64,000 bases of DNA from NCBI GenBank assembly GCA_001788095.1, contig MFZX01000031.1, forward strand, positions 9,736 to 73,735. Reading direction: 5' to 3'. This DNA is from Candidatus Roizmanbacteria bacterium RIFCSPHIGHO2_12_FULL_37_23 (GTDB lineage Bacteria; Patescibacteriota; Microgenomatia; UBA1406; HO2-37-13b). A program made the translations under genes and the position numbers. The notes beneath the pieces are model-generated. The model saw only the letters and a program-made list of their open reading frames with translations, ran no database searches and was not told the origin of the DNA. Below, piece by piece: positions 196 through 62,521 of the stretch (positions are counted from its first letter, which is position 1; each line of letters opens with the position of its first letter).

Positions 196-234
196 AAACA
201 ACCTTAGAGGTTGTTTAGCTTCGCAACCTTGGGT
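196..234 (-). repeat. CAACCT-hairpin repeat family (R1), variant a, reverse orientation
   Basis: aaacaaccttagaggttgttt-agcttcg-caaccttggg; reverse complement matches 28203-28250. Confidence 0.55.
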
Positions 235-932: not shown

Positions 933-3224
933 TTATGTAAGTTTCTTCTCCAGTTCATACACCATCTCTCGAGTCCTATCTACGACATCCGGGGTAACTG
1001 AAAGGCTGGTAATGCCCCACTCCACAAGTTTTTCTGCAAGTTCTGGATAATCAGATGGGGCTTGGCCACAGATTGAAACAGTTATTCCATGTTTTTTCCC
1101 AGCCTCAATAACTCTTTTTAAAGCCCACATAACCACAGACCTTCTTTCATCATAAATATATGCAATTTCCTGGTTATCCCGATCTACACCAAGTAATAAC
1201 ATGGTTAAATCATTTGTTCCTATGGAAATTCCATCAATGCCCTCTTTGATAAACTCTTCTACCATGATTGCAGATGAAGGAACTTCAACCATCATCCAGA
1301 GCTTAAAATTCTTATCTCTATCAAGGCCATGTTCCTTGATCACCTCTTTGATCTGCCGGATCTCTTCAGGAATACGAACAAATGGAATCATAAGCCACAC
1401 ATTTGTATGTCCTGCTTTCCGGACTTTCTTAAGCGCCTCCAACTCCATAGAAAAAACTTCTGTATCGCGGATGTATCGCGAAGCTCCTCTATAACCGATC
1501 ATTGGATTTTCCTCATGAAACTCATACTTCTCCCCACCTTTCAAGTGACGATATTCATTCGTCCTAAAATCAGTTGCACGGTACACAATAGGCCTTTTCC
1601 CAAATGGTTTAGCAAACATCGTGATTTTTTTTGCTAAAGCATTAATATATTCTTTTTGTTTCCCTTGCTCTATGGCAAGCCGTGGATGAATATTTATATG
1701 AGCAACAATAAACTCTGCTCGTAAAAGCCCGATTCCGTCAACATTCATTCGTGCTACTCTATCTGCTGATTCTGGTTGTGCCAGATTGGTATAAATTTTT
1801 GTTTTTGTCTTAAGTTTTGCACCACGCGAGGCTACTTGTTCGAGTGTGGCACGTTGTTTTTGAGTATAAGGAATTCCTTTAAAAACTTCACCGCGAGAAC
1901 CATTCACTGTAATCATTTTTTCTTTTTTTAATAATGACGTTGCTTGTGCAGCTCCAACTACAGCCGGTATGCCTAACTCGCGGGAAACAATTGCCGCATG
2001 CGAAGTTCTTCCGCCCATTTCAGTCACTATGGCAGCTGCTTTTTTCATAGCAGGAACGTAATCAGGGCTTGTATATGCTGCAACTAAAATATCTCCAGGT
2101 TTGACTTTATAATTCTCTTTCGGAGATTTAAGAACCTTAGGAACTCCTGTAGCAACCCCAGGGGAAGCAGGATCGCAAGAAATAAGCAAGTCTTCTTTTG
2201 ATCCCTCAAGTTTGAGAGCTGGATGTTCGATATTCAACTTACCATTACCTACCCCTTGACCGATGGTCGTTATCGGGCGTGACTGCACGATAAAAACCTC
2301 ACCATTTTCTATAGCCCACTCTACATCCTGAGGTTTTTTATAATGCTTTTCAATATTTTTTACAAGCTTTGCAATCTGAAGAATTTCTTTGTCTGTAAGC
2401 TTTTGCTTATTTCCAATTTTTAATAATTTTACTTCAACATTTCTTGTACCTTTTTTTATCAACGCTTTATTCTGATATCTAATCTCTTTTTTCTTAATCG
2501 TTACATTATGCTTATCAACTTCATAATGATCTGGTGTAACTTGCCCACCAACAATATATTCACCGAGTCCAAAAATAGCCTCAATTGTTATGGTTGAATC
2601 ATCGTTGGTTACTGGATCACTACTAAAAGCAACGCCGGACTTTTCTGACTGGACCATAAGCTGAATAACTGCAGCAAGACCAACTTTGTGATGGTCAAAT
2701 CCCTGCTCTGCTCGGTAATAAATAGCACGATTGGTAAATAAGGATGCCCAACATTTTTTCACTGCATCAATAAGATCCTTTTTTCCTTGCACATTAAGAT
2801 ATGTTTCCTGCTGTCCAGCAAAAGATGCCGATGGGAGATCCTCCGCTGTTGCCGATGACCTTACAGCAACAAAAGGAATATGTCCGTTTGCATACTTTTT
2901 TGAAAAAATTTCGTAATGTTTACCGATTGCCTTTTTTAGCTCTTCTGGAATAGGCTGTTTTTTAATAAGATCGCGAAGTTTTTCTCCTGCTGTCTCTAAC
3001 TGTTTAGAGTTTTCATGATCAAGACCTTTAAGAATTTCATGTATTTTCTCTTGCAGATGTTGTTTTTCAAGAAAATAAAAATACGCATCCGCAGTTACTA
3101 TAAAACCATCTGGGACAGGAAGCTTCGCATTTAACATTTCGCCTAAATTCGCTCCTTTCCCCCCAACCCTCTCAACATCATCTTTGCCCACCTCTTTATA
3201 CCAAAGTATGTGTTTATTACTCAT
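933..3224 (-). CDS. ppsA: phosphoenolpyruvate synthase (pyruvate, water dikinase)
   Basis: 763 aa; N-terminal ATP-grasp region (VGGKGANLGEM), central phosphohistidine domain (GGRTSHAAIVSRELGIP), C-terminal PEP-utilising domain. Confidence 0.85.
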   Translation of the reverse strand: MSNKHILWYKEVGKDDVERVGGKGANLGEMLNAKLPVPDGFIVTADAYFYFLEKQHLQEKIHEILKGLDHENSKQLETAGEKLRDLIKKQPIPEELKKAIGKHYEIFSKKYANGHIPFVAVRSSATAEDLPSASFAGQQETYLNVQGKKDLIDAVKKCWASLFTNRAIYYRAEQGFDHHKVGLAAVIQLMVQSEKSGVAFSSDPVTNDDSTITIEAIFGLGEYIVGGQVTPDHYEVDKHNVTIKKKEIRYQNKALIKKGTRNVEVKLLKIGNKQKLTDKEILQIAKLVKNIEKHYKKPQDVEWAIENGEVFIVQSRPITTIGQGVGNGKLNIEHPALKLEGSKEDLLISCDPASPGVATGVPKVLKSPKENYKVKPGDILVAAYTSPDYVPAMKKAAAIVTEMGGRTSHAAIVSRELGIPAVVGAAQATSLLKKEKMITVNGSRGEVFKGIPYTQKQRATLEQVASRGAKLKTKTKIYTNLAQPESADRVARMNVDGIGLLRAEFIVAHINIHPRLAIEQGKQKEYINALAKKITMFAKPFGKRPIVYRATDFRTNEYRHLKGGEKYEFHEENPMIGYRGASRYIRDTEVFSMELEALKKVRKAGHTNVWLMIPFVRIPEEIRQIKEVIKEHGLDRDKNFKLWMMVEVPSSAIMVEEFIKEGIDGISIGTNDLTMLLLGVDRDNQEIAYIYDERRSVVMWALKRVIEAGKKHGITVSICGQAPSDYPELAEKLVEWGITSLSVTPDVVDRTREMVYELEKKLT

Positions 3225-7040: not shown

Positions 7041-7075
7041 CAACCTCTAAGATTGTTTAGGTTCACAACCTTGGG
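7041..7075 (-). repeat. R1 repeat, variant a, reverse orientation
   Basis: caacctctaagattgtttaggttcacaaccttggg. Confidence 0.55.
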
Positions 7076-7128
7076 TATTTTAATTTAATTTTTTAATTTT
7101 TGTACCTAAAATATGTAGGAGATGTTGG

Positions 7129-7180
7129 GCCTCACTTCAACCTTCGATGTTGGTTTGTACTCCAACCTCTGTACTTGGGG
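7129..7180 (+). repeat. R1 repeat, variant b (aaccaaccttcgatgttggtttgtactccaacct)
   Basis: 34-nt core identical to copies at 28098, 39262 and near-identical at 46255. Confidence 0.6.
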
Positions 7181-8295: not shown

Positions 8296-10483
8296 AAGCA
8301 TCAAAAACGACATGCTCTTGTCCTGCATCAGATGTTCCTGTTTCCATCCCACCGAGAAACACTCGCAATGCATCTTTGATTCTCTTTATTTGTTGGAAGT
8401 CTGCAGGATAGGGATTCTCCCATTGAAAGACTCTTCCAAGTTCTTGAACTGACTTCCCTTGTACATATCGATAATAGAGATACCTTTGTTGGTGTGCATT
8501 AAGGCTTTCTAGAAATCTGGTGAATCTAGTTGGATCATCTTGCGCAAAAGTACCTAATTCGCGAACATTCCGAGTCGCTAATTCGCCTCTCAATATTTCA
8601 ATATTTCCCCTATTTTGACCGCGGAATTCTCTAATGGATCTTGGTCTCCTCCTGTTCCTTCTTTTCTTAACTTCTCTTGGTTTTTCAAATTTATCTAATT
8701 GCATAGAACCTTTTCCTAAATACCTCTCAAGATGGGCAATGGCCCGATGCTGACGTGCTTTTGCTGCTCCGTAAGATGTTCCCATTACCCGAGCTATTTG
8801 ATCAGATCGTAAACCTCGCCATAATCTATTCCACAATAATGTTCGTTGTTCTGGCTCCAGATCTTGGAGCATTGCTAAGAATAGAGCTGGATCTTCTAAT
8901 TTTTCGCGTACTGCTGGATTGTGTGTATGTTGAAGCAAGCTGAGTCGAATATGTTCAGCGAGTATATCAGGCGGTGGCTCTGCAAATTCCACCCGCTTAG
9001 TTTTTTGAGTTGGTTCTGGCACAATTACTTCAACGGATTGATATGTGTTATAAGCAGTAACAACGCTTTGTATCGAAGACTCACCTAATGGTGTTGTGAC
9101 ATAAATACCATCCGTTATACGCATGAGTAAAGGACTATCTCCTTGGGTAAGTCTCTTATTAAGAGTCTCTCGTAATGTTTCTAATTCTAAACCTAATCTT
9201 TGAGCTGCAGCCCTACCATGATCTCTAAAAACGAATTGTCCATATCGACTTAGATATTCATTTACCACGGTTAAAATTTCTAGTTGATACTGGGGATAAC
9301 CAACATCCGCTGCAACTGTATTATCGGGATAAGGTATGGTCATATCAGCTTCCCCAGTTAGCATATCATAGAAATCTTTTGTTGGAATCATGAGCCTATA
9401 ACCACCTCGAGTATCTTCATGGACTATGCCAATTTGCTTAGCTAAATCCATTGCTCTGATAATTTGTTCTTTTGAAAAACCAGTTCCTTGATACATGTCA
9501 CGAAGTGAAACAGCTCGAACAATGTTTCTCCGCTCTTTTTCATCAGTTCGCGCAGCCAGAAGGGTTAGGCGTGCAACCATCGACGGAGAGATTGATTTTT
9601 CAGTTCCATCCACTTGTTCAAATTGGATTGTCCCACTATACGGATTAATCACACGAGATTCAGATGCGACCTCTGTTTCTGGAGTGGTTCGAACAGTTCG
9701 TGCCAAAAGAACTGGGTGGATTGTGTATTCGGTAGTCTGACCTCTTAATATTCTTTCTGCAGCAATTCCATTTCTAATCCCGTATCCAAATGCTGTCTTT
9801 TGACGCACAATTCCAAGAAGCGGTTCTTCTCCATGCGTCGCTATTTTATGCAGTATTTCTCTTACATACTCTTCTCTAAAGGGAACTTCTATATCAAGAT
9901 CGGCCATATCGTGATGTGGTAAAAAGACTTGGTGACTTTGAATGTATCGTAATATCGATGCAACAAGATCACGATGATACTCATGGATTTTATCTTGCCA
10001 TAAATCGGGCTGAGGAGGTGGAACCTTTCTTATATTTGTTCTTGAAACAAGGAGTTCTTGGAGTGTTGGTATGGGTACCGTCGGGCGATAGCCTGATGAA
10101 TATGTTCCAGTTCTCTTTTTAACAACGCCAAGTGCAGTTAGCTTATCTAAAGCATGTCTAACTTCAAAATTTGTTTGCGCACCTTGTGTCATCTCAGAAA
10201 CACGTCTTGCAGTAATCCATGGGTCAACGCCCTGATCTGTAAGAGCCGTTGCAACTCCGGTAAACAAGGCTCCAATATATCGATCAGTTACGCGCAATTG
10301 ACGCTCTTCACCTGTAAATTCGGAGTTCGCGATAATGGTCTGGGGTCCATAAGGAACTACTATTGGAACATTAACATATGCATCTCCTGGCTCAGCGGAA
10401 TCGGGTCTTAAGACGAAAAGAGAAGGTGTAGCTTCCAAACCAGGCGGGACATCTATAGTGTCTACTAATTCAGCACGACCCAT
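8279..10483 (-). CDS. large (734 aa) Arg-rich hypothetical protein with several winged-helix-like segments and two sigma-70 region-4-like HTH motifs; unknown function
   Basis: SDQIARVMGTSYGAAKARQHRAIAHLERYL (sigma70_r4-like), GKSVQELGRVF..IKRIKDALRVFL, ALDKLTALGVVKKRTG; higher GC than flanking genes; convergent 17-bp overlap with ychF. Confidence 0.5.
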   Translation of the reverse strand: MGRAELVDTIDVPPGLEATPSLFVLRPDSAEPGDAYVNVPIVVPYGPQTIIANSEFTGEERQLRVTDRYIGALFTGVATALTDQGVDPWITARRVSEMTQGAQTNFEVRHALDKLTALGVVKKRTGTYSSGYRPTVPIPTLQELLVSRTNIRKVPPPQPDLWQDKIHEYHRDLVASILRYIQSHQVFLPHHDMADLDIEVPFREEYVREILHKIATHGEEPLLGIVRQKTAFGYGIRNGIAAERILRGQTTEYTIHPVLLARTVRTTPETEVASESRVINPYSGTIQFEQVDGTEKSISPSMVARLTLLAARTDEKERRNIVRAVSLRDMYQGTGFSKEQIIRAMDLAKQIGIVHEDTRGGYRLMIPTKDFYDMLTGEADMTIPYPDNTVAADVGYPQYQLEILTVVNEYLSRYGQFVFRDHGRAAAQRLGLELETLRETLNKRLTQGDSPLLMRITDGIYVTTPLGESSIQSVVTAYNTYQSVEVIVPEPTQKTKRVEFAEPPPDILAEHIRLSLLQHTHNPAVREKLEDPALFLAMLQDLEPEQRTLLWNRLWRGLRSDQIARVMGTSYGAAKARQHRAIAHLERYLGKGSMQLDKFEKPREVKKRRNRRRPRSIREFRGQNRGNIEILRGELATRNVRELGTFAQDDPTRFTRFLESLNAHQQRYLYYRYVQGKSVQELGRVFQWENPYPADFQQIKRIKDALRVFLGGMETGTSDAGQEHVVFDASTHQP

Positions 10484-10529
10484 TGTGGACTATTATATCA
10501 CACTACTTGTTTCATTAGCCTCAACCCTG

Positions 10530-10562
10530 CCTCAAATCCCACCTCGGGAGTGGGATTTGAGG
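10530..10562. repeat. R2 hairpin repeat: cctcaaatcccac-CTCGGGA-gtgggatttgagg (13-bp stem), downstream of the tatD stop
   Basis: Perfect palindrome. Copies also at 14283, 16901, 55680 and 57517. Confidence 0.6.
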
Positions 10563-10568
10563 CAAATA

Positions 10569-11444
10569 TTAATGAATATTAAAAAGTCTCAGTGCATTTT
10601 CTGTCGTTATTTTTACTAAATCTTCGATGCTCTCTCCTCGTAACTTCGCTACAAATTCAGCGATAATCGGAAGATTCACAGGTGTATTTGGGTATTGTTT
10701 TTGGGATCGTAAAGGTTCTGGTAGAAGAAATGGCGAGTCTGTTTCTAAGACAAGATGTTCTTGAGGGACCCGCATAATAAATTCCTGTTTTTTCCGTCCT
10801 GGAGGTGAATCATACGTTATATCTCCATCAACACCAATAAAAATATCATGGTTTTTAGCAAAACCTAATAATTCTTCCTCTGGTTCACAGCAATGAAAGA
10901 CTATTCTTCCTCTGAAATATTCCTCCCAATGCTCATTGAGAAGCCCCAGAAGATCATTTTTTGCTTCTCTATTATGTAGAATAACAGATTTTTTGTAATT
11001 CTTTGCAAGTTGTAATTGTTTAATTAAAAATTCTTTCTGAAGATTGAAAAACATTTCGTCAATGTGGTAGTTTTGATATTTAGTATCTTCATATACATGT
11101 TTATCAAGTCCAATCTCACCAACCGCTAAAACCTTCTTTTCCTGGAGAAAATTTTCAATAAATTGTAGTCGTGAAGTAAATTCAGTATGAGCTAAAAACA
11201 CATGATGCGGATGTATTCCCACCGCCGCAAAAACTGACTCATCGCGTGAAGCAATTTCCACAGCTTTCTGTGATGATTCCTCGTCTGTCCCCGGAACCAC
11301 AATGTACTTCACGCCTGACAGGTGTGATAGCCTCAACACATCATCAAGGGTTTTTGCAAAGCGTTTAAAATTGAGGTGCGCGTGGGTATCAAACATGGTT
11401 AAAATAGGTTGGAATAAGTTGTAATAAGTTACAACAGGTTGCAA
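10569..11444 (-). CDS. tatD: TatD-family metal-dependent DNase/hydrolase
   Basis: MFDTHAHLNF..VVPGTD..GEIGLD motifs of the TatD/amidohydrolase fold. Confidence 0.8.
   Translation of the reverse strand: MQPVVTYYNLFQPILTMFDTHAHLNFKRFAKTLDDVLRLSHLSGVKYIVVPGTDEESSQKAVEIASRDESVFAAVGIHPHHVFLAHTEFTSRLQFIENFLQEKKVLAVGEIGLDKHVYEDTKYQNYHIDEMFFNLQKEFLIKQLQLAKNYKKSVILHNREAKNDLLGLLNEHWEEYFRGRIVFHCCEPEEELLGFAKNHDIFIGVDGDITYDSPPGRKKQEFIMRVPQEHLVLETDSPFLLPEPLRSQKQYPNTPVNLPIIAEFVAKLRGESIEDLVKITTENALRLFNIH
11310..11346. repeat. R3 sequence (cacGcctgacaggtgtgatagcctcaacacatcatc) lying in-frame inside tatD (encodes DDVLRLSHLSGVK)
   Basis: About 34/40 identity to the intergenic hairpin at 18747-18795. Confidence 0.4.
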
Positions 11445-11485
11445 TAGGTTCCGATTTTAACTAATTGATTATAACTGATCGTAAT

Positions 11486-12412
11486 CTACGTTGCAGGATA
11501 ATCTACCACTTTTGGAGGGATATATGGAGCTTTTTTGATAAATGTATTCATAATTTGTGGTAAAAGACTAAAACCAATAATAAACATGACAACAGCGAGG
11601 AAATAACCAATAATCGAAAGTATTATCCATCCTTTAGGTCTCTCTATAACCTTTGGTATTTTCAACAAGGAATATATTTCATACATATAGCTTATGAGAA
11701 ATGGACCAAAGAAAATGGACAGTACAAAATTAATTGCATTGAGAACAGCGCTGTCGACTGAAGCAAGAGAAATAACAATTATATAAAACAACGCATATAT
11801 GAGAACCAACCGACCAGCAATTCCCCAAAATCTCTGATTAATAAGTGACCTACTTATCCATAGATTATCAAGTCCAATCTTTTGTTTCTCAATGAAAACA
11901 ATGACTGAAAAAGCATTCCAGAAAACCCAGAGAAAGAATATTAATCCAAGACTCATAATGCCAAATGGCACAAGTCCCAGAAGGAAAAGATTCAAAGCAA
12001 TATTAAACCACACAAATCCCCATACTCGAGGACGTGTTTTTTTATACGTATCAATAACACCAATATTTTCTTTTTGAATTATTATGGTTGTTAGCGTGAG
12101 TTGGGACCAAGAAACAAGATAAATGATGACGAGAGCCCCGTATATAATCCCAATAATTGCAAGAAACGCAATAATAATGGTCGATATTGTTGTTTTAAGA
12201 GTAAAAAGAACTGCTGCAAAAAGCCCGACAATGAGGAAAACGACGGCTATACCAACGAAAATAATAATATATTGGATTATTGCTGCGATAAGGAAACTTA
12301 GGAAGCGATCTTTGGTTCGTTGTAGAGCTTTTCGTATAAGATTTTCTATCTGCCAGGGGTTGTTGGTAGCCATACTAGATTTAGTATAAAAGAACTCTGT
12401 AAAGAATGTCAA
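11486..12412 (-). CDS. polytopic integral membrane protein, unknown function
   Basis: 308 aa, multiple hydrophobic helices. Confidence 0.45.
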   Translation of the reverse strand: MTFFTEFFYTKSSMATNNPWQIENLIRKALQRTKDRFLSFLIAAIIQYIIIFVGIAVVFLIVGLFAAVLFTLKTTISTIIIAFLAIIGIIYGALVIIYLVSWSQLTLTTIIIQKENIGVIDTYKKTRPRVWGFVWFNIALNLFLLGLVPFGIMSLGLIFFLWVFWNAFSVIVFIEKQKIGLDNLWISRSLINQRFWGIAGRLVLIYALFYIIVISLASVDSAVLNAINFVLSIFFGPFLISYMYEIYSLLKIPKVIERPKGWIILSIIGYFLAVVMFIIGFSLLPQIMNTFIKKAPYIPPKVVDYPAT

Positions 12413-27302: not shown

Positions 27303-27348
27303 CACACGATCAGGAGCGCTGATCTCCGCTGACCTCCTCCAGTAGTTA

Positions 27349-28075: not shown

Positions 28076-28135
28076 CCCCGAGGTTGCGAGCGTAACCAAC
28101 CTTCGATGTTGGTTTGTACTCCAACCTCCCGGGTT
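28076..28135 (+). repeat. R1 repeat variant b inserted in the AT-rich spacer within GC island 2
   Basis: ccgaggttgcgagcgtaaccaaccttcgatgttggtttgtactccaacctcccggg. Confidence 0.6.
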
Positions 28136-28202: not shown

Positions 28203-28250
28203 TCCCAAGGTTGCGAACGTAATCAACCTCTAAGGTTGATTTGTTTTCAG
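28203..28250 (+). repeat. R1 repeat variant a (ccaaggttgcgaacgtaatcaacctctaaggttgatttg)
   Basis: Same architecture as variant b; outer stem aggttg/caacct plus inner hairpin. Confidence 0.55.
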
Positions 28251-31125: not shown

Positions 31126-32274
31126 ATGACTCGCAAAAGAAAAGGAAATTACAAAAAGAGGTTCATATTCTTACTACTTGTAGGAGCGTTAGTCATAATT
31201 GGGCTTTATTCAACTAAGAATCTTTACCAAAAAACTATCGTAGATATACCTAAGATCACCAAAATACAACAACTCATTTCACCTATTCCAACTCAAACTA
31301 ACTCATTCCAACTTTTTTCAACCTCTTTATTTGTCCCTTACTGGACCCTCAAAAATACTGAGTTCAATTCTCCAATCTCTCTGCAAGACGGCGGCTTCAA
31401 ATCTCAAATCAACACGCTTATCTACTTTGGTATAACCCCTACCGAAACGGAAATTAACAAAAATGAGCCGGGGTTCTATAATTTGTCAACTTTTAGTATT
31501 TCAAAAAACTCATATCGCGCCTTGCTGACGATCCGGATGTCAAATGAGGATGTTACTTCAACGATTCTCGAAAATGAGACTTCTCAAAAAACAATCATCC
31601 AAGAAACTCTCGAAATAGCTTCCCAATATGATTTTGACGGTATAGTGTTAGATTTAGAACATTCTGTTCTCCCTACATCAGACATTATTCAACAGATCAC
31701 AGATTTCGTAGAAACATTCTCATTGCAAACAAAACAGCAAGAATTAACATTTGGTATGACTATATACGGTGATACATATTATCGTCAAAGACCATATGAT
31801 CTTAAGGCTTTAGATCAATACGTTGATCAATTCTATATCATGGCATACGACTTTCATAAAAGTTACGGTGAACCGGGTCCAAATTTTCCCCTTAAAGGAA
31901 AAGAAATATATGGATACGATATGGAAATAATGATTCGTCAGCTCATTTCTGATATTGACGCTCAAAAACTTACTATCCTGTTTGGTCTGTTTGGTTATGA
32001 TTGGTCAGTGGACGACCAAAATCGCCCGTTGAAACCAGCTCAATCGCTTACATTACGTCAGATCAAAAACCGCTTTCTCGAATCTTGTCCATTCACACCA
32101 TGCTCTATACAAAGAGATAATCTTTCAGCGGAAACAAGCATACAGTATGCAGACGAGACTGGCCAAAAACATGTCGTATGGTTTGAAGATGAAACCTCAG
32201 TAGGTGAAAAAGTAACATTCTTGAACTCGAATTCCATCTCTAATATAGGATATTGGGCATGGGGATACTATTGA
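31126..32274 (+). CDS. membrane-anchored GH18-like (chitinase-fold) protein
   Basis: N-terminal TM; DFDGIVLDLEH resembles the GH18 DGxDxDWE catalytic motif (one Asp replaced). Confidence 0.45.
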   Translation: MTRKRKGNYKKRFIFLLLVGALVIIGLYSTKNLYQKTIVDIPKITKIQQLISPIPTQTNSFQLFSTSLFVPYWTLKNTEFNSPISLQDGGFKSQINTLIYFGITPTETEINKNEPGFYNLSTFSISKNSYRALLTIRMSNEDVTSTILENETSQKTIIQETLEIASQYDFDGIVLDLEHSVLPTSDIIQQITDFVETFSLQTKQQELTFGMTIYGDTYYRQRPYDLKALDQYVDQFYIMAYDFHKSYGEPGPNFPLKGKEIYGYDMEIMIRQLISDIDAQKLTILFGLFGYDWSVDDQNRPLKPAQSLTLRQIKNRFLESCPFTPCSIQRDNLSAETSIQYADETGQKHVVWFEDETSVGEKVTFLNSNSISNIGYWAWGYY

Positions 32275-38372: not shown

Positions 38373-38423
38373 GGGAGGAATGGAGATTGGAAATTTGAGA
38401 TTTGAGAATTAAAGAACTGAAAA

Positions 38424-39227: not shown

Positions 39228-39246
39228 TGCTCTAATCCCAATGTCC

Positions 39247-39310
39247 CCTAGGTTGTGAACGTAACCAACCTTCGATGTTGGTTTGTACTCCAACCTCTGT
39301 ACCTGAGGCT
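39247..39310 (+). repeat. R1 repeat variant b immediately upstream of argS; generates the spurious N-terminal extension of the track ORF
   Basis: ctaggttgtgaacgtaaccaaccttcgatgttggtttgtactccaacctctgtacc. Confidence 0.6.
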
Positions 39311-39338: not shown

Positions 39339-41027
39339 ATGCTAAAACAAAAAGTGTATGAAGCCTTTCGGGAAGCCCTCGGAACAAAAGAAATTACGCT
39401 TCTTAACCCTACTCGACCTGAATTTGGAGATTTCGCAGTGAATATCCATAGATTTGAGTCCGCCAGCTGGCGGAGAGATTCGAAAGTGGAGAATGTCATT
39501 AAAAAACTCGCTCAAAACGAGCTTTTCGAAAAAATTGAGCAGAAAGGAAGCTTTATAAATGTATTCATCAAAATAGAAACTCTTCTGAACGAGCTACAAA
39601 CTATCCAAAAAAAACAAGAAAAATATGGTTACATTGACCAAAAAGGTATACGAATCAATCTGGAATATGGAGATCCAAATACGCACAAACTTCCTCACAT
39701 AGGACACCTGTTCTCGTATGTTGTTGGCGAATCATGGGCACGCATCCTTGAAGCGACAGGAAATACAATATATCGGTGTTGCTATCAAGGAGATGTTGGG
39801 CCTCATGTTGCTAAATGTCTATACGGCATTCAAAGCTCAGGAGCCAGAATTCAGGATCTTGAAAAAAAGTCGCTTGAAGAAAGAGTTTCCTTACTACAAA
39901 AAGCTTATCAAGAAGGGTCAAAAGTATATAAGGAAGACCCTAAAGCAAAGGGTGAAATCGATGAAATTAATAAAAAGATTTACGAAGGAGAACCTTTAGT
40001 CAGAAAATTATGGGAAACAACCCGCTCTTGGAGCTTGGAATATTATCAACAATTCGAAATGAAACTCGACATCTCATATGATCAACACTATTTTGAGAGT
40101 CAAACAAGTGATCTTGGAAAAAAAATCGTACAACAACATTTGGGAAATATTTTTGAGGAAAGTGAAGGCGCAGTTGTTTTCCGAGGCGAAAAACACAACC
40201 TCCACACACGAGTATTTATTACCACATTAGGTACTCCAACTTATGAGGCAAAAGATCTTGCTCTGGTGACATTGAAAGCAAAGGATTGGCCTTTTGAGAA
40301 AGCAATTATAACTACGGCGTCTGAACAAAACGAATATTTTAAGGTTGTCATTAAGGCGATTGAAGAAGTACATCCTGAATTTAAAGATAAAATTTCTCAT
40401 ATCGGTTTTGGCCTTATTGATCTCAAATCAGGCAAAATGTCTTCACGAACTGGTAATATCATTTCAGCGATGGACCTTGTCGCCAATGTAAAAAAGATTG
40501 TTCAGAATGATCTTCTTTCAGAGAACAAAGATGACAAAACTGCAGACATCATTTCTTTAGGTGCAGTTAAATTTGCATTTCTGAAGTCCGAAGCTCGAAA
40601 AAATATTCTTTTCGATATTGAAGAGTCTGTTTCTCTTAAAGGCAACTCCGGACCGTATTTACAGTACGTTTACGCGAGAACGCAAAGCGTTTTACGCAAT
40701 GGAGAATGGAGATTTGAGAGTGGAGAGTGGAATTCTCAAATCTCAAATCTCAATTTTCAAATCGGTCTCGAGGAGCTCGCTCTTCTTCGTTCCTTTCCCC
40801 ACTTCCCAGAAGTAGTTGAAAATGCGGGAACAACATATTCCCCACACTTAATTTGTACATATTTATACGATCTTGCACAAAAATTTAATGCTTTTTATGA
40901 AAAATGTCCTATTTTACAAGCACAAGAAGATGTAAGAGACTTGAGACTTGCACTCACTGCAGCAACCGGTCACATTATTAAAAACGGACTGCATCTGCTA
41001 GGAATTAAAGTTTTAGATAAGATATGA
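39339..41027 (+). CDS. argS: arginyl-tRNA synthetase
   Basis: PNTHKLPHIGHL (HIGH), anticodon-binding C-terminal DALR-type region ...PHLICTYLYDLAQKFNAFY. The ATG at 39339 avoids the repeat. The track ORF begins at 39255. Confidence 0.8.
   Translation: MLKQKVYEAFREALGTKEITLLNPTRPEFGDFAVNIHRFESASWRRDSKVENVIKKLAQNELFEKIEQKGSFINVFIKIETLLNELQTIQKKQEKYGYIDQKGIRINLEYGDPNTHKLPHIGHLFSYVVGESWARILEATGNTIYRCCYQGDVGPHVAKCLYGIQSSGARIQDLEKKSLEERVSLLQKAYQEGSKVYKEDPKAKGEIDEINKKIYEGEPLVRKLWETTRSWSLEYYQQFEMKLDISYDQHYFESQTSDLGKKIVQQHLGNIFEESEGAVVFRGEKHNLHTRVFITTLGTPTYEAKDLALVTLKAKDWPFEKAIITTASEQNEYFKVVIKAIEEVHPEFKDKISHIGFGLIDLKSGKMSSRTGNIISAMDLVANVKKIVQNDLLSENKDDKTADIISLGAVKFAFLKSEARKNILFDIEESVSLKGNSGPYLQYVYARTQSVLRNGEWRFESGEWNSQISNLNFQIGLEELALLRSFPHFPEVVENAGTTYSPHLICTYLYDLAQKFNAFYEKCPILQAQEDVRDLRLALTAATGHIIKNGLHLLGIKVLDKI
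40703..40766. repeat. R5 repeat (ggagatttgagagtggagagtgg-aattc-tcaaatctcaaatctcaattttcaaatc), internally palindromic, in-frame inside argS (encodes GEWRFESGEWNSQISNLNFQI)
   Basis: An inverted partner lies at 41028-41060. Family also at 38382, 50786, 51031, 58529 and 61023. Confidence 0.45.
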
Positions 41028-41620
41028 ATTCTCCACTCTCAAATCTCAAATCTCAAATTAATAAGCGTCCTCTCCGTGTAGGATTCGACCTCGACGGCGT
41101 CCTACTCTATAACCCAGCTCGTATTGCTCGTCACCCAATAACAATTGTAAAACGACTTTTTTTCCCAAAAAGACTCCACACTTTTTACGTCCCACAATCT
41201 GAAATTGAAAAACTCATGTGGCGCGTGTTTCATTGGTCAAGTTTATTTATCGCCCCAGGATTCAACCAGATCAAAGAGATGAGCCATAAAGGCCTCATTG
41301 AACCATATATTGTAACAGCACGATTTGACTTCCTCGAACCTGATTTCAACACGTGGATAAGAAGAATGCGTATTAATGATTCGTTTAAAGGGATATATCT
41401 TAACAAGCAAAACCAGCAACCTCATATATTTAAGGAACAAATCGTAAAGGAGCTCAAACTAGACATTTTTGTTGAAGACAATTGGGATATCATTCAACAT
41501 CTTACTCAGACAACAAAAGCTAAAACATTTTGGATATACAATATTTTTGATCGGGGAATTCAATACGAATACAAATTTCCAACACTAAAAAAAGCGGTTG
41601 AAAAAATAAAAAGTTATTGA
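41024..41620 (+). CDS. HAD-superfamily hydrolase (5'-nucleotidase-like)
   Basis: VGFDLDGVL motif I; 4-bp overlap with the argS stop. Confidence 0.5.
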   Translation: MNSPLSNLKSQINKRPLRVGFDLDGVLLYNPARIARHPITIVKRLFFPKRLHTFYVPQSEIEKLMWRVFHWSSLFIAPGFNQIKEMSHKGLIEPYIVTARFDFLEPDFNTWIRRMRINDSFKGIYLNKQNQQPHIFKEQIVKELKLDIFVEDNWDIIQHLTQTTKAKTFWIYNIFDRGIQYEYKFPTLKKAVEKIKSY

Positions 41621-43637: not shown

Positions 43638-45383
43638 TTAATTAGCAACCACAACTAAATCAGACGAAAGTTGAATGATTGAAGCTTTGGGATCTTTTTC
43701 TTTTATCTGTCCTATTGCATCGCTACTAAAACGTGGAATAACATATACATACTTTTCAATAATATTGAATCGTGCTAAAACATCGCTCTGATTCACTAAT
43801 GTGCTATGTTTTATACCCGAATCGTTACTAAAGTGAAAAACTTTTTGGACATGATAATTTGGAAAAGCAACGATATACACATTTCTTTTAGGATAATTTT
43901 GTTCAATAAAACGGGCCGCAACAACAGAAATATCGGTATCTTTTCTTGTAGCTTGCTTGAAATATATAAAATTAGATATTCCAAACACGACCAGTAATCC
44001 TCCTCCTAACATAAAAAATATAAATGACTGTTTGAGTAGAATTTTCTCAAAAGGCATTGTCATAAGTAATACCAGCAAAGGGAATACTACAATGATCCTA
44101 TGAAATGCAGGTGGAGGAAGTGTCATAACCATTCCAGTAAAAAATGTGGTAAAGATCGTAAATAGAATAAGACCCACAAGATAATTCTTTTTAATAAAAA
44201 TCAATGAAAATAGTGCACCTACCAGAAATAAAATCAGTGAAATAGGTTCAAACAAAGCTTGAGATCCGAAAAAGAAACCCTGACTACCCCCTATGTCGCT
44301 TATATATAGTGATTTCAGTGATAAAAATACATTATCTATCAATCGTACATCTGTGCTTTTCAAAACATCAACTTGCTGATATCGTTGTAATAAGTATATG
44401 TTTTTTGTTCCGAGCATATAACCAATAAAGGGCAGCATAACAATAGAAAAACCATATATTGATATAAAGATATCTATGAGAAACTTTTTCGATCTTTGAA
44501 AAAGTAGAGCTACAATATACACAATTATCATAAGGGGAAATGCATGATATGATTTCGGATCAAAAAGGTAACAGAAGCCACCAAAAAAACCGGTCATAAA
44601 AAAAGAGAGTTTGGAAGGTTTTTTTAGTGACCGAGCTAGAAAATAAAAAAACCATATAAAAGCTGCGAGTGTGCCTGCGTGCAAAGTAGCTAAAGTATCG
44701 TGATATAAACTTATCGCAAAAAAGGTATACAAAAAGATTGCAATTAAGGTTATTCTAAAAGAAAAAACAAGACGAGCTAAAAGAAAGAAGGCTAAAGCCG
44801 TCAAAAATATATAGGGAAGTGTTGAAAACTTTACACTTAGAAAACTCTCTCCAACAAAACTAAAATATAATTTTTGAATACCTAAGAACAATGTAGCCTG
44901 CTGGCTCACCCATGCAGCGGGATCAATTGGAAATGGACCAAAAAAATTAACCTTAGTAAAATCATATATTGATGTAAAGTAAGCAAGTATATACTCATCT
45001 CCATGCACTCTGTTGATATCCAAAAGAAGTGCTCGAACAAGGGTTGGAACAAGTGAAATGAGAATTGCAGTTTTTAAGATTGAAATATCTTCTTTAGAGA
45101 GTCTTGTAGAAAAAAAGTACAGACTTCCAATCAGAGAAAGCAGCCATAGCAGTATGTAATAGGAATAATAGTGGCCAAAATATATTTTGAAAGCAATAAT
45201 GATACTTAATAGAATAGAGCTTCCTAAAGCCCCATATCTTAATATATTATTAAAGCTTTTTGAAGATTGTAACTTTTGGGTGGTCATAAACGGTAAAAGA
45301 CTCATCAGCCCATTGGTCATTAATTGAAAAATATGGATAAGATGTAAATTCTTGGACCTGCATAAAATCCCCTCTCCCCGCAA
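43638..45383 (-). CDS. polytopic membrane protein, GT-C (ArnT/PMT-like) glycosyltransferase candidate
   Basis: HGDEY acidic motif in the first loop, more than 10 TM helices. True start probably an internal Met, since the track ORF overlaps the upstream gene by 134 bp. Confidence 0.45.
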   Translation of the reverse strand: MRGEGILCRSKNLHLIHIFQLMTNGLMSLLPFMTTQKLQSSKSFNNILRYGALGSSILLSIIIAFKIYFGHYYSYYILLWLLSLIGSLYFFSTRLSKEDISILKTAILISLVPTLVRALLLDINRVHGDEYILAYFTSIYDFTKVNFFGPFPIDPAAWVSQQATLFLGIQKLYFSFVGESFLSVKFSTLPYIFLTALAFFLLARLVFSFRITLIAIFLYTFFAISLYHDTLATLHAGTLAAFIWFFYFLARSLKKPSKLSFFMTGFFGGFCYLFDPKSYHAFPLMIIVYIVALLFQRSKKFLIDIFISIYGFSIVMLPFIGYMLGTKNIYLLQRYQQVDVLKSTDVRLIDNVFLSLKSLYISDIGGSQGFFFGSQALFEPISLILFLVGALFSLIFIKKNYLVGLILFTIFTTFFTGMVMTLPPPAFHRIIVVFPLLVLLMTMPFEKILLKQSFIFFMLGGGLLVVFGISNFIYFKQATRKDTDISVVAARFIEQNYPKRNVYIVAFPNYHVQKVFHFSNDSGIKHSTLVNQSDVLARFNIIEKYVYVIPRFSSDAIGQIKEKDPKASIIQLSSDLVVVAN

Positions 45384-46992
45384 AAAGATCTTTATAAAAT
45401 TTTGACATTTGCGGATACCGTTCCGGTGCAGTTAAAATACTCCCATATCCTCTATTACTTGAAAAAATATAGTAGTCAGCTTGTTTTAAAAGACTATCAA
45501 TACGATTCCATTTATCCGGTGTATCAGGATCAAATACTGGTAATTGATCTATTTTATACAGCAAAGGTGAATCGTAATTTATTGGCAAAGGTAAAGCATC
45601 GTCCCAATGCTCTGTCACAATATGAGAGCCAGCGGGAATATTCTTATATATCCATTGCGAAGCTGTTACTCTGCTGTGAGGACGAGTATAAATTGCCATA
45701 AAACCTAGTGGCCAAATAGATACGAAAATGAGCAATATTGATATAGCTAGTTTTTGATATTTCTTTACTTTCTCTATGATAGTGACGATACCAAAAGCAC
45801 CTATAATCGCAAAAAATGGATATAAAGGATAAAAATATCTCATTCCCATAACAAATTGCGTACTTTGATAAAGAAAAAAACCAATAATCCAGAGAAAAAT
45901 AACATAAAATTCTTTTTTTCTATGTTGCAAAAAATCTCTAACACCGATAAGAACGATTAAAAAATAAGGAATTCCAAGGCCAAAGACTGCTAAATTTATA
46001 AGAGGAAATGCGATTGATTGCTTATGGACCCACTGGACGCCAGGCGGGAACCATACGTTAGGATTCGAATAGGTGTTTAATTGTTTAATATTTTCTATAA
46101 ACTGCGGATTTGGATGGATATCAAAAAAATTAGCATTCGTAAAAAGGCGTGGATCTGCTAAACGTAGAGCGATATAGAAAGTTATTAAAAACAAACCAAT
46201 ATGAATAACCAATGTCATTGGATGTATTGCTGGTGAGTCGATGTTGGAGTAATAACCAACCTTCGATGTTGGTTTGTACTTCAACCTACCGGATCTACGT
46301 CTTAACAAGATTGGGAATTTTTCGTTTATCATTGCTAAGACAATCAAAACAATGATGAGAAAGGTTGGTAGGATGGCCGAGAGCTTTGAAGCAAATGCTA
46401 GACCAAGTATTGTTCCACATAGAGCAATATCAATCGTACGTTTATCGTAAAAATACCGAAGCGAAAAGTATATTGACGCTAATGCAAAAAAAACGAGAAA
46501 TGAGTCTGTTGTAAAAAAATGTGCATTTTGAATAGGTACTACTGCAATCGCATATAAGAATCCTGCAAAATATTTTATTCGATTATCAATCTTATACTTT
46601 TGTTCCCATAACTGCATCATCTTTATGACAAAAATAAGGCTTAAAACGTCAAAAATTGCGCTTAATGCACGGCCATATATGGCCGTTTCGTTATACGTAT
46701 CTACGTTGGAAAAAACAACGAATAACTTATTGAGAGTGAGAGGAAATGTTCCATATACGAAAAAACTGAAGCCAATATTATAAGGGTTTAATGTTGATTG
46801 TGTAGGATTCATGTATTGAGTAATTGATTCAGGTATTTTCATTGCATTTGAAACCATAGTGAGGAAACGCTCATCTGGATGAAGATGTTGGTTTTGATCC
46901 CAATTTAGGCCATATAGTCTAAGTATAAGAGCGAGTAAAACAATGGTTATAAAAAGAAACTTCTGCATTGTAGGACTAAGTAAAAATTTCAA
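45250..46992 (-). CDS. GT-C family 39-like (ArnT / protein O-mannosyltransferase-like) membrane glycosyltransferase; contains an in-frame R1 repeat
   Basis: LHPDERF (DE motif) near the N-terminus, many TM helices. The repeat-encoded segment is LKYKPTSKVGYY. Confidence 0.55.
   Translation of the reverse strand: MKFLLSPTMQKFLFITIVLLALILRLYGLNWDQNQHLHPDERFLTMVSNAMKIPESITQYMNPTQSTLNPYNIGFSFFVYGTFPLTLNKLFVVFSNVDTYNETAIYGRALSAIFDVLSLIFVIKMMQLWEQKYKIDNRIKYFAGFLYAIAVVPIQNAHFFTTDSFLVFFALASIYFSLRYFYDKRTIDIALCGTILGLAFASKLSAILPTFLIIVLIVLAMINEKFPILLRRRSGRLKYKPTSKVGYYSNIDSPAIHPMTLVIHIGLFLITFYIALRLADPRLFTNANFFDIHPNPQFIENIKQLNTYSNPNVWFPPGVQWVHKQSIAFPLINLAVFGLGIPYFLIVLIGVRDFLQHRKKEFYVIFLWIIGFFLYQSTQFVMGMRYFYPLYPFFAIIGAFGIVTIIEKVKKYQKLAISILLIFVSIWPLGFMAIYTRPHSRVTASQWIYKNIPAGSHIVTEHWDDALPLPINYDSPLLYKIDQLPVFDPDTPDKWNRIDSLLKQADYYIFSSNRGYGSILTAPERYPQMSKFYKDLFAGRGDFMQVQEFTSYPYFSINDQWADESFTVYDHPKVTIFKKL
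46235..46300 (+). repeat. R1 repeat variant b lying in-frame inside the GT39-like CDS (RPE-like situation)
   Basis: aaccaaccttcgatgttggtttgtacTtcaacct; translated on the minus strand as YKPTSKVGY. The copy at 39262 gives the same peptide in the spurious ORF 39075-39293. Confidence 0.6.
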
Positions 46993-50606: not shown

Positions 50607-51029
50607 ATGATTCTTAAAATCTTTACAGACGGCGGATCCAAGGGAAATCCCGGTCCTTCTGCGATTGGCATCGTAGGTTACACAGAGGAGGGAAAAGAGA
50701 TTCTACGTCATAGGGAAGATATTGGCAGAGCTACAAATAATGAAGCTGAATACACAGCAGTAATAAAAGCTCTCGAGCTCATCCATTTTCAAATTTCAAA
50801 TTTCAAATTTCAAATTAACAGAATCGACCTCTACTCTGATTCGCGACTTATGGTAAACCAACTTAATGGTTTGTTTAAAATTAAAAAGGCCCATATTCGT
50901 AATTTTGTATTTAAAGTACGGATTTTAGAGTCAGAATTACGCCTTCCGGTATATTATCATCATATTAGACGGGAAGAAAACAAGGTCGCAGATGCCTTAG
51001 TGAATGGAAATTTGAAAGATGAGATTTGA
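50607..51029 (+). CDS. RNase H-like protein (RNase HI fold); contains an in-frame TTTCAAA x4 repeat
   Basis: FTDGGSKGNPGPSAIG, EYTAVIKALE, DSRLMVNQL. Repeat at 50786-50817 encodes HFQISNFKFQIN. Confidence 0.65.
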   Translation: MILKIFTDGGSKGNPGPSAIGIVGYTEEGKEILRHREDIGRATNNEAEYTAVIKALELIHFQISNFKFQINRIDLYSDSRLMVNQLNGLFKIKKAHIRNFVFKVRILESELRLPVYYHHIRREENKVADALVNGNLKDEI

Positions 51030-51053
51030 AAATGGACGGACATTTTCAAATTT

Positions 51054-55630: not shown

Positions 55631-55679
55631 ATAAAACTATTATACTATAGGATTATCTATATTGCAAACCTCATATTAG

Positions 55680-55712
55680 CCTCAAATCCCACCTCGGGAG
55701 TGGGATTTGAGC
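55680..55712. repeat. R2 hairpin repeat; a partial second half-site lies at 55746-55760
   Basis: cctcaaatcccac-CTCGGGA-gtgggatttgagC. Confidence 0.55.
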
Positions 55713-57505: not shown

Positions 57506-57516
57506 CCTCAACTTAG

Positions 57517-57549
57517 CCTCAAATCCCACCTCGGGAGTGGGATTTGAGG
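57517..57549. repeat. R2 hairpin repeat after the membrane protein gene
   Basis: cctcaaatcccac-CTCGGGA-gtgggatttgagg. Confidence 0.55.
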
Positions 57550-57601
57550 CTAGAGCATGGGCATGCAACCTTAGAGGCTGACAATATGCTACAATATCCG
57601 T

Positions 57602-58534: not shown

Positions 58535-58582
58535 GACTGGAGAGTTAACTTTCAAATCTCCATTTTCAAATCTCAAATCATT

Positions 58583-58732
58583 ATGCGTCGTGTCGGATAT
58601 CTACTTATCGCAATCGGGCTCGCTTTATTGGTTTTTCTGGGCTATTCCTATTGGAGACAGCGAAGCCGCTTTATAACACCTATTCCTGAAGATAAAGGAG
58701 TAAAAGTAATATTTATTACACCGGGAAGTTAA
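58583..58732 (+). CDS. small membrane protein (49 aa)
   Basis: ORF found manually; preceded by R5-type repeat ttcaaatctccattttcaaatctcaaatc. Confidence 0.25.
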   Translation: MRRVGYLLIAIGLALLVFLGYSYWRQRSRFITPIPEDKGVKVIFITPGS

Positions 58733-60817: not shown

Positions 60818-62521
60818 TTGCAATTGTTCTATAATAATCGTATGCAAAAAATTCTTGGAGCTCTTTTTATTACAATAATATTTTTTGGGTTATGCTTTTC
60901 CGTAAACGCAGACGAGCTTGATGATATCAGTCATGAACTTGATAAGCTGAATAGAGAACTCGAGGATTCAAAAAAAGCAACAAAACCTCTTGAAGAGGAT
61001 CTTGACAGACTTCGTAAACAACTTTCAAATATCAAATCTCAAATATCAAATATCGAATCCGATATTGTCCTAAGAGAAAAACAGATTGTTACCGCAGAAA
61101 AAGCTTTAGAAAAACAAAAGGAAATAATTGATGAACGAATTAACGCACATTATAAAAATATTAAAAAAGCAGAAGCATCTTTGATTGATATCCTTATTAC
61201 AGATAACCTTTCCATCTCTCTTCAGAATTTTTTCTACCAAAAAAAAGCAGCGGATAATGATAAACAGACAATACTCCGCATCGTCCTTTATATCAAAAAT
61301 ATTGACGATAAAAAAACAGAGCTCGCTTCAGAAAAAAATAGATTGGCTCAAGTAAAACAAACTGTAGACGAGCAATCGCAATTTCTCTCAGGTGAAATAG
61401 GAAAAGCAAAGGACTTTCAAGCTGAATTATCAGGACGTATCGCGTCATTGACCACCCGTCAGCAACAATTGATTGGGCAGAAACTGGCGAGCTTAAATAT
61501 TCCCCGTTCGGCTGGTACGTCTTCCCGAGGATGCTCAAGCGATCTTACAAACGGCCGCGATCCCGGATTTTCTCCTGCAATAGGTTTCTTTACATATGGA
61601 GCTCCACACCGTAATGGCATGAATCAATATGGTGCTTGGGGACGAGCTAAATCAGGACAAAACGAAGAACAGATTCTCGCAGAATACTATCCGAATATGA
61701 GTTTGAAAAAGGATTTTGACCAAGGAACTCAAATTAATGTTGATGGATATGGAACATTCTCTATCGAAGATTATGTGAGGCGCATTTATGAAGTTCCAGA
61801 TTCGTGGACTGACAATAATCTTGCTGTACTTAAAGCGCAAGCAGTCGCAGCAAGAACGTATGGTCTTAATTCTATGCAAAGGAACGGTCATATTTGTACA
61901 ACAGAAGCATGCCAAGTATTTAAGGCCGAACCAAAAGGTGGTAATTGGGAACAAGCTGTTGAAGCTACAAAAGGATGGGTGCTAATGGATGGAGGAAATC
62001 CTGGATTTACACAGTATGCTTCAACACATGGTGGTTATATATTAAATCTTGGAAAGTTTGATGGTTCAGGAGGAAATCCGACAAATTTTTCAGAACTTAA
62101 CGAACGAGCGTATGATAGAGAATCTCCATGGTTTTATTGCAATTGGGGAGCTCGAAGCCAATACGGGGGCACTGCATGGCTCAAGTCCGAAGAAGTTGCT
62201 GATATCGCAAATGTGATTCTCCTTGCACGATATTCTGACGTTGATAAAGAACATCTATATCAAGTTGATAAACCAAATCCCGCAGGAAAAGAAACATGGG
62301 ATGCGGAAAAAGTAAAATCTGAAATTCGTGCTCGTGGAGGTAATCCCGTAGGAGATGGTTCAAATACATCGGTATCTGTCGATTTTGGCTCAGGAAAAAC
62401 TTCTTCTGTAAATGTTGGAGGTACGAGTTTCGACGCAGGCGAATTTAAGGATTGGTTTAATCTTCGAGCACCTGCAAATATCCAGATCGTCGGTCCTTTA
62501 TTTAATGTGGAGAAGAAGTAG
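60818..62521 (+). CDS. SpoIID/LytB-domain protein with N-terminal coiled coil (peptidoglycan-remodelling)
   Basis: GMNQYGAWGRAKSGQNEEQILAEYYPN and AVLKAQAVAARTY signatures of the SpoIID family. Confidence 0.55.
   Translation: MQLFYNNRMQKILGALFITIIFFGLCFSVNADELDDISHELDKLNRELEDSKKATKPLEEDLDRLRKQLSNIKSQISNIESDIVLREKQIVTAEKALEKQKEIIDERINAHYKNIKKAEASLIDILITDNLSISLQNFFYQKKAADNDKQTILRIVLYIKNIDDKKTELASEKNRLAQVKQTVDEQSQFLSGEIGKAKDFQAELSGRIASLTTRQQQLIGQKLASLNIPRSAGTSSRGCSSDLTNGRDPGFSPAIGFFTYGAPHRNGMNQYGAWGRAKSGQNEEQILAEYYPNMSLKKDFDQGTQINVDGYGTFSIEDYVRRIYEVPDSWTDNNLAVLKAQAVAARTYGLNSMQRNGHICTTEACQVFKAEPKGGNWEQAVEATKGWVLMDGGNPGFTQYASTHGGYILNLGKFDGSGGNPTNFSELNERAYDRESPWFYCNWGARSQYGGTAWLKSEEVADIANVILLARYSDVDKEHLYQVDKPNPAGKETWDAEKVKSEIRARGGNPVGDGSNTSVSVDFGSGKTSSVNVGGTSFDAGEFKDWFNLRAPANIQIVGPLFNVEKK

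Follow-up and report, generated by a model that had tools for sequence, protein, structure and literature searches.

A REPIN-like palindromic repeat lying in-frame in a GT-C glycosyltransferase gene of Candidatus Roizmanbacteria, with a candidate RAYT-like Y1 transposase

Repetitive extragenic palindromic (REP) sequences and their inverted doublets (REPINs), together with the REP-associated tyrosine transposase (RAYT or TnpA-REP), are among the described systems closest to the locus analyzed here (Bertels & Rainey, 2011, PMC3116915; Bertels, 2017, PMC5581495). The locus lies in a 64 kb stretch of DNA (hereafter the window) from a Candidatus Roizmanbacteria bacterium, in which a palindromic repeat of about 57 nt is read in-frame within a gene for a glycosyltransferase of the GT-C fold. 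The repeat, at 46237-46293, is probably one copy of a species-specific REPIN-like family, most likely spread by a RAYT-like Y1 enzyme and tolerated in-frame in the GT-C gene. Further work on REPs and RAYTs was reportedly published by Nunvar in 2010, by Ton-Hoang in 2012 and by Messing in 2012 (PDB entry 4ER8). As in REP/REPIN-RAYT systems, the repeats seen so far are short, dispersed and mostly extragenic palindromes, inverted doublets form a long hairpin, a single-locus Y1/HUH gene is flanked by repeats, the protein fold is nearest to that of TnpA-REP, and kindred transposases with flanking hairpins of like build occur in related lineages. However, the host is a bacterium of the Candidate Phyla Radiation (CPR; Microgenomates), and the transposase, at about 225-230 amino acids with a C-terminal extension of about 65 amino acids, lies under the NCBIfam cut-off for RAYTs. 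Furthermore, the element has no constant GTAG tag, the two units of a doublet share one hairpin without a spacer, the copies flanking the transposase gene are direct where inverted copies are more usual, and the copy number is so far low.

Single REPs and REP dimers have been described inside the open reading frames (ORFs) of known proteins, where they account for about 20-30 residues, and TAG stop codons are provided by REP ends (Di Nocera et al., 2013, PMC3733652). Here, too, an element lies in an ORF and the stop codon TAG of the Y1 ORF comes from the 3' flanking element; however, the published cases belong to GTAG/CGTC families of Proteobacteria, Opitutus and Rickettsia, many of them in replication or repair genes, whereas here a non-GTAG element occupies a GT-C gene of a CPR bacterium. 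Rickettsia palindromic elements (RPEs), a further class of palindromic repeats, have been reviewed (PMC10969869). RPEs share with the present case a palindromic repeat in-frame in a functional gene, with its peptide at a permissive site. They were reportedly treated by Ogata et al. in 2000. The two have no sequence relationship, the present element being set apart by host, by length and by exact-pattern scans, which found it only in contigs of this species, rather than by alignment to an RPE consensus. RPE-1 is about 100-150 bp long (short types, RPE-4/6, exist) and a large share of RPEs is intragenic, whereas the element here has 57 nt and one copy in ten is intragenic; in addition, RPEs have no identified dedicated transposase. 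The original prediction for this stretch, which spoke of RPE-like behaviour, was right about the behaviour, an in-frame palindromic repeat at a permissive loop of an intact gene, although the element itself is no RPE.

The TnpA enzymes of IS200/IS605 insertion sequences (ISs) and TnpA-REP recognize hairpins in single-stranded DNA, and cut and join it without target duplication. IS200/IS605 elements and palindrome-associated transposable elements (PATEs) resemble the present system in their Y1 HUH transposase, same-strand hairpins at both ends, absence of target-site duplication and use of single-stranded DNA, whereas the Y1 gene here is apparently single-copy and fixed, and scores better against RAYT than against IS200 models. 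A search of the available literature returned no paper linking RAYT, REPIN, REP or MITEs (miniature transposable elements with inverted repeats) with CPR or Patescibacteria. In-frame palindromic insertion is a known kind of event that is apparently undescribed in this lineage.

The repeat copy within the glycosyltransferase gene

The host gene is an unbroken ORF of 580 amino acids from a TTG start (572 amino acids in the public annotation; Table 1), and hypothetical proteins identical to its product occur in several Candidatus Roizmanbacteria metagenome-assembled genomes (MAGs; CPR, Microgenomates; locus tags A3H80_00795 and A2862_00480). The Pfam PMT_2 domain was matched at 32 bits (cut-off 26.1), the homologues carry GT39 or ArnT family annotation, and residues D40 and E41, an acidic DE motif after the first transmembrane helix (TM1) in the first outer loop, are invariant in the alignment. 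The protein is, judged by this domain and by the Foldseek matches of an AlphaFold model built from 24 sequences, a GT-C fold glycosyltransferase (PMT_2/GT39-GT83-like). A tandem paralogue, also GT-C-like, follows directly downstream (43638..45383); a Pfam scan of this paralogue matched nothing.

When the repeat is read on the reverse strand, it makes up residues 234-252 of this protein, SGRLKYKPTSKVGYYSNID (57 nt, 19 codons), with the peptide LKYKPTSKVGYY at residues 237-248; as had been predicted, the shared core lies within the 580-residue coding sequence without breaking its frame. The extent of the copy was set by aligning it with the nine other copies described below, and the full element proved to be longer than the 34 nt core. 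Its right half and loop are near canonical (one mismatch), and four of the 20 left-arm positions are mismatched.

Both flanks of the insert align in a single frame with 23 homologues, and all 91 invariant columns of the 24-sequence alignment are retained, so that the gene is neither frameshifted nor truncated. The alignment with homologues that the original prediction called for places the extra residues in a loop, as anticipated. The element-encoded residues stand opposite a gap in 21 of the 23 homologues (an excess of 16 amino acids), and the loop bounded by the invariant anchors K203 and R277 has 75 residues, compared with a median of 49 (range 40-80) in the 119 best homologues. The encoded peptide is kept as protein in no homologue, either in the 23-sequence alignment or in the comparison of the 119 loops, and is thus not a segment conserved in distant orthologues. 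The predicted local distance difference test score (pLDDT) of the model falls below 50 internally only at residues 226-232, 236-238 and 240-253, and this stretch and the insert sit between helices 204-222 and 258-279. The insert is present in all six near-identical public variants of the protein (all at least 99% identical), and no allele without it was found among these six cluster members. These results favour the reading that a dispersed palindromic repeat inserted in-frame in the GT-C gene and was tolerated there. The approximately 19 inserted residues are rich in K and R, and such a peptide would suit a cytoplasmic loop by the positive-inside rule. For the glycosyltransferase gene alone the effect is probably small, namely a longer disordered loop.

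The repeat family and the Y1 transposase gene

Copies of the element were counted over about 100 kb of this species, comprising the window and further contigs (designated L). The 34 nt core occurs without mismatch at 46254-46287 and with one mismatch each at 28094-28127 and 39263-39296, whereas 0.00 matches, against three to four in the window, are expected from dinucleotide-preserving shuffles. The core copies reported earlier at 28098, at 39262 and inside the coding sequence are therefore real, with starts at 28094, 39263 and 46254. At the fourth reported site, 7129, the conserved part (CAACCTTCGATGTTGGTTTGTACTCCAACCT) begins only at 7138; a 21 nt core match with three mismatches is found at 7135, and the 5' end has diverged. 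The core sequence itself was recovered, with its variable base one position away from that given before (GTACT[T/C]CAACCT). The copy at 39263, read on the reverse strand, does give ...RLEYKPTSKVGYVHNL... with the core YKPTSKVGY, but the spurious ORF said to carry the same peptide was loosely worded, no reverse-strand ORF of at least 100 amino acids being present there.

When public metagenome contigs were scanned for exact matches to a 21-mer, 12 stretches were obtained, of which four are the window's own loci and one is L005; the others yield six further copies in contigs that were assigned to the same species by shared locus-tag series, MAG names and neighbouring proteins. The total is ten distinct doublets, with four doublets and three single units in the window. 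A search with a covariance model (R1) built on the ten copies found no further doublets in the window or the other loci. The match in L005 (2992-3012), within a truncated ORF of 1033 amino acids from an unrelated organism of 55% GC, was rejected as a chance or coding coincidence, with the palindrome arms absent; it also reads YKPTSKV, and about one such match is expected by chance in a collection of that size.

In its canonical form (L006 and L009), the element is a perfect hairpin of 20-23 bp, AGGTTGGAGTACAAACCAAC-CTTCGAT-GTTGGTTTGTACTCCAACCT, which folds as single-stranded DNA at -22 to -27 kcal/mol (z -9.7 and -11.1). The basic unit consists of a 7 bp hairpin (AACCAAC/GTTGGTT) followed by a tail of about 20 nt, the last bases of which are CAACCT(N)GGG; two such units, inverted and with the central hairpin in common, make up the 57 nt form, and both strands read hairpin plus tail. 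In the alignment of the ten copies the loop and right arm are near invariant and the left arm is variable, an asymmetry that is partly one of ascertainment since the search 21-mer lies in the right half. The three short forms in the window have the hairpin CAACCT-CTA-AGGTTG, and that at 28204..28241 is related to the halves of the 57 nt doublet. Folding of the copy at 7118..7177 gave no stable structure (z -0.2). The canonical 57-mer is open in all six reading frames; among composition-matched shuffled palindromes 4.6% share this property, and among random ones 0.8%, so that the openness is suggestive but not decisive. An Rfam search of the window matched only a tRNA-Met and no family at or near the elements. 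No strand bias relative to replication was seen: each of the four copies in the window occupies the + (C-rich) strand, and those of L001, L019, L006 and L009 are on the G-rich strand.

One hypothetical ORF of 125 amino acids (L009 572-949; P0260 in the protein database) ends within a copy of the element (...TEVGVQTNIEGWFVLQPL...), and is likely to be spurious or altered at its C-terminus by the repeat. A search of 5.8 billion proteins for other in-frame copies, using six joined element peptides, returned a single 125-residue match (E 1.5) and missed the glycosyltransferase itself, and hence had no power.

In the same species, contig L002 carries two copies of the element 783 nt apart (1237-1299 and 2020-2082) that bracket an ORF of 230 amino acids (1343..2035), one lying 51 nt upstream of its start and the other across its stop codon. 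The ORF ends inside the latter copy (2020-2035, equivalent to L019 10678-10693), with its last codons reading ...ERLE followed by the TAG of GAGAGGTTGGAGTAG; this stop is the TAG of GGAGTAG in the 3' flanking copy. The protein matches Pfam Y1_Tnp at 35.1 bits (cut-off 23), and among NCBIfam models it scores highest against REP_Tyr_transpos (47.4 bits, compared with 16.5 bits for IS200). Residues H89 and H91 (HUH) and Y149 in an RYxHxNP motif are invariant in 23 homologues. The AlphaFold model (pLDDT 86) has as its top Foldseek match in the PDB entry 4ER8 (E 4e-6, TM 0.71), E. coli TnpA-REP bound to a REP hairpin; the TnpA proteins of IS608 and ISDra2 rank lower (E 3e-4 or worse), and the coverage of 4ER8 is longer.

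The Y1 gene (A3H80_04940 and A2862_04125) and the glycosyltransferase gene occur in the same MAGs, as seen from the tags A3H80_ and A2862_. The Y1 gene stands in one context, glyA-Y1-hyp-trpS-leuS, in 24 of the 24 contigs read, and no second copy of it was found in the window or the loci sampled. The protein has more than 2,300 homologues of about 225 amino acids, many on short contigs of 1-3 kb; where their source is named, all come from Patescibacteria/Microgenomates lineages, save one labelled only 'subsurface metagenome'. Levybacteria (L015) and Microgenomates (L017) have homologues with about 50% identity, which are surrounded by housekeeping genes and keep their position from sample to sample. 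Units of a hairpin plus ACCTnnGGG flank both of them, and the hairpin in L017, ACCAACCTTAGAGGTTGGT, hardly differs from that of the short forms in the window. Because hairpins of like build flank proteins of about 50% identity in three lineages, these comparisons argue for a functional enzyme-substrate pair. The gene just downstream of the Y1 gene (L002 2057..2629) shows weak, sub-threshold Pfam matches to RnlA/RNase LS HEPN-type toxin domains (E about 1e-3).

Table 1. Positions of the repeats and of the host gene in the window (pTM, predicted template modelling score).
Feature	Position	Strand	Remarks
REP-doublet (REPIN-like) copy within the GT-C coding sequence	46237..46293	+	R1 model 74 bits, E 1e-17; hairpin -10.3 kcal/mol as DNA, z -2.9
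Host gene, predicted GT-C glycosyltransferase	45250..46992	-	Pfam PMT_2; mean pLDDT 87.3, pTM 0.88; Foldseek AglB/STT3, ArnT, Pmt4
Intergenic doublet	39246..39302	+	75 bits; between the end of an ORF (39227) and the start of arginyl-tRNA synthetase (~39339)
Intergenic doublet	28077..28133	+	72 bits; in a GC-rich region without clear ORFs
Intergenic doublet, degenerate left arm	7118..7177	+	68.8 bits; upstream of a ychF-like GTPase ORF starting at 7216
Single REP-like unit (short form)	28204..28241	.	Hairpin AATCAACCT-CTA-AGGTTGATT + CGAACGTAA/AAGGTTG tail; 15.8 bits
Single REP-like unit (short form)	7041..7075	.	Shares its divergent spacer with the 7118 copy
Single REP-like unit (short form)	196..233	.	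From repeat comparison and R1 model search
AT-rich family	40704-40778, 41027-41074, 50784-50831, 51002-51036, 61024-61074, 38377-38413, 58547-58594, 31397-31417		TCAAATCTCAAAT / GAGATTTGAGA
Third hairpin family	10529-10563, 14278-14314, 16902-16931, 55676-55711, 57513-57550		GCCTCAAATCCCACCTCGGGAGTGGGATTTGAGGC

Explanations of the in-frame copy

Because this genome has a Y1 gene with a copy of the element on either side, the model of the Y1 protein is nearest to TnpA-REP and similar hairpins flank its homologues in two other CPR lineages, the element is best read as a REP doublet (REPIN-like) mobilized by a RAYT-like enzyme. By analogy with the TnpA of IS200/IS605 and the TnpA-REP of E. coli, the Y1 (HUH) enzyme of this genome would recognize the hairpin of the element in single-stranded DNA and disperse doublets, its own gene sitting at one fixed locus. 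One copy would have landed in the GT-C gene, where it lengthened by about 19 residues a disordered loop that joins two transmembrane helices and varies in length. A copy would persist in a gene only if its length were a multiple of three, if it introduced no stop and if the site were structurally permissive; the copy in the glycosyltransferase gene may have survived because its length is a multiple of three, the frame used has no stop and the loop is permissive. Movement of the element by the Y1 enzyme, the origin of the gene copy by insertion and the continued function of that enzyme are our inferences.

Several points weigh against this explanation. The origin of the copy by insertion is deduced from loop length, through a comparison in a loop that is already variable and in which five of the 119 homologues are as long or longer; the nearest non-identical homologues are just 48-51% identical, and the database sequences include no empty site. 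The glycosyltransferase with its insert is presumed still to be active. Counting of the copies in about 100 kb placed only one of the ten distinct copies in a coding sequence, the other nine being extragenic, and the copy number seen is modest (four per 64 kb). For the Y1 protein, the NCBIfam score lies below the 80-bit RAYT cut-off, and a sequence-profile search of the PDB ranks ISDra2 TnpA at E 0.002 and 4ER8 at E 0.029, about equidistant. The copies that flank its gene are direct, not inverted, as at IS200-type ends, and the 5' tag GTAG, usual in REPs that accompany RAYTs, is found only in these two, the others having GTAC, GTAA or CGTA. In addition, an exact-pattern scan of a species-representative genome collection with the 21-mer core gave no match, and an arm-pattern scan of the same collection gave two (a Burkholderiaceae and an Acidobacteriaceae MAG), at about chance level; the source species seems to be absent from this collection or masked in it.

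The direct orientation of the flanking copies, at both ends of a unit of about 850 bp, recalls the left-end and right-end (LE/RE) hairpins of IS200, and the Y1 gene with its two hairpins might be an ordinary autonomous IS200/IS605-type IS, the 57 nt copies being end-derived miniatures (PATE/MITE-like) rather than products of a domesticated RAYT-REPIN system. The Pfam match to the IS200-like Y1_Tnp family, the slight lead of ISDra2 TnpA over 4ER8 in the PDB profile search and the frequent occurrence of homologues on contigs of 1-3 kb, as if assemblies broke at repeats, are in keeping with this proposal. We nevertheless regard it as unlikely: the gene has one fixed context in every contig read and no second copy in the sampled DNA, its relatives hold fixed positions among housekeeping genes in two other lineages across samples, the NCBIfam RAYT model clearly outscores that of IS200, and the fold search places TnpA-REP first with longer coverage. 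Even under this alternative the in-frame insertion stands, and only the classification of the mobilizer changes. It is quite improbable that the repeats are selected cis-acting signals (sites for protein binding, hairpins for RNA stability or termination, or sequences associated with promoters) and not mobile, with the copy in the glycosyltransferase gene being an internal regulatory site or an accident of gene conversion. Three of the four copies in the window do share one orientation and occupy a divergent spacer or a position immediately upstream of + strand genes, and one short form was called terminator-like. However, the doublets have no T-run and none was called, so that a terminator reading of them was rejected; terminator-like calls in the region (22) do not exceed those in shuffles (15.5 +/- 4.4), and no Rfam family lies near the elements. 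The far better conservation of the right arm and loop can indicate a strand-specific function, but is in part a product of the 21-mer having been taken from that half; the orientation of the ten copies is inconsistent with respect to GC skew or genes, and an association with a Y1 transposase in three lineages is as found for mobile REPs.

If mobile, the element might still have inactivated the glycosyltransferase, leaving a recent pseudogene that looks open and has a tandem paralogue alongside. We hold this to be very unlikely, although the second GT-C-like ORF is immediately downstream, the public variants, at 99% identity or more, have had little time to decay, and the added loop is long and charged. 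The 580 codons form one uninterrupted frame in which none of the 91 family-invariant residues is lost, the DE motif after TM1 among them; the insert occupies the single loop whose length ranges from 40 to 80 amino acids among homologues, the remainder of the model is confident, and the paralogue, too diverged for a Pfam match, is no obvious back-up. It is scarcely credible that the loop had these 19 residues from the outset, the intergenic copies having come out of the gene or being like it by chance. The length of the loop does vary and is as great in a few homologues, but it is the copy in the gene that has diverged, as seen from its left-arm mismatches, whereas the perfect palindromes and the transposase-flanking copies lie elsewhere; furthermore, no chance matches are expected (0.00) and no homologue has the peptide.

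Other repeats and significance

An unrelated GC-rich palindrome of about 92 nt occurs in a GC-rich spacer of the window (28420-28511) and in the rplK-rplA spacer of L019 (7554-7643). A third copy, in the same genome, lies in-frame in the leucyl-tRNA synthetase (LeuRS) gene (L019 13031-13172, equivalent to L002 4373-4514), where it encodes ...WVARSEGSPNGADPDSSRGSTGWEGERDRP..., an insert of about 38 residues where LeuRS of T. thermophilus has six; this 142 nt stretch folds as RNA at -58.7 kcal/mol. In L025, from another CPR lineage, the GT-C orthologue (P0041, 639 amino acids, 10001..11920) has three to four in-frame GC-rich repeat inserts (at 10404-10449, 10591-10614 and 10730-10775), with one palindrome in the same loop as the insert in the window; another of the inserts, a 46 nt repeat, recurs with 96-97% identity at 13072-13117 and 14333-14367, within a GT4 gene and in the N-terminal part of a third gene. 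The GT-C orthologue P0090 of a third lineage (L027 1054-1164, from 3.7 kb of contig) has the GC-rich palindromes TCATTCCCGCGAACGCGGGAATCC and TTCCTGGTTTGGGGCCAGGAA in the same loop (z -3.5). The long loop of P0017 was rejected as a palindromic insert, with z -1.5 and no repeat copies. From the LeuRS, L025 and L027 cases, RPE-like behaviour may be widespread in CPR genomes. It is conceivable, though we put it forward only tentatively and think it rather doubtful, that in-frame colonization of housekeeping and envelope genes by palindromic repeats is a general and as yet undescribed feature of CPR (Microgenomates) bacteria, driven by a CPR-wide clade of RAYT-like Y1 enzymes, with the elements selected to be free of stops in six frames.

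Two other families were seen in the window (Table 1). One is AT-rich and partly palindromic, occurs at gene ends and inside ORFs, and reads ...SQISNLNFQI..., ...SNLKSQIN..., ...FQISNFKFQIN... and ...SNIKSQISNI...; its presence in ArgS as a second in-frame insert was not established, with only about six extra residues relative to arginyl-tRNA synthetase (ArgRS) in the PDB. The other forms a hairpin, has five intergenic copies in both orientations and resembles the hairpin ATCCACCTGGGAGGTGGAT that flanks the Y1 gene of L015 (Levybacteria). The region 26230-29530 (about 3.3 kb) reaches a G+C content of 0.47 in 4 kb windows, much higher than the value of about 0.38 elsewhere in the window, and has no convincing long ORF and no Rfam match; it includes an acidic, D/E/G-rich, coding-like repeat (28737-28952) and a 14 nt tandem repeat (28010-28075), and the population variant L004 is 30 nt shorter across it.

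CPR bacteria have very small genomes, which are thought to be poor in repetitive and mobile DNA. This species still has a REPIN-like family and a dedicated, apparently domesticated Y1 transposase, and both this and another palindromic family are tolerated within real genes. The RAYT/REP phenomenon would thus be extended to a major uncultured radiation, and a concrete source is offered for some of the lineage-specific insertions that are common in CPR proteins. Such elements break metagenome assemblies, make spurious ORFs and inflate the apparent novelty of proteins, and their recognition improves annotation.

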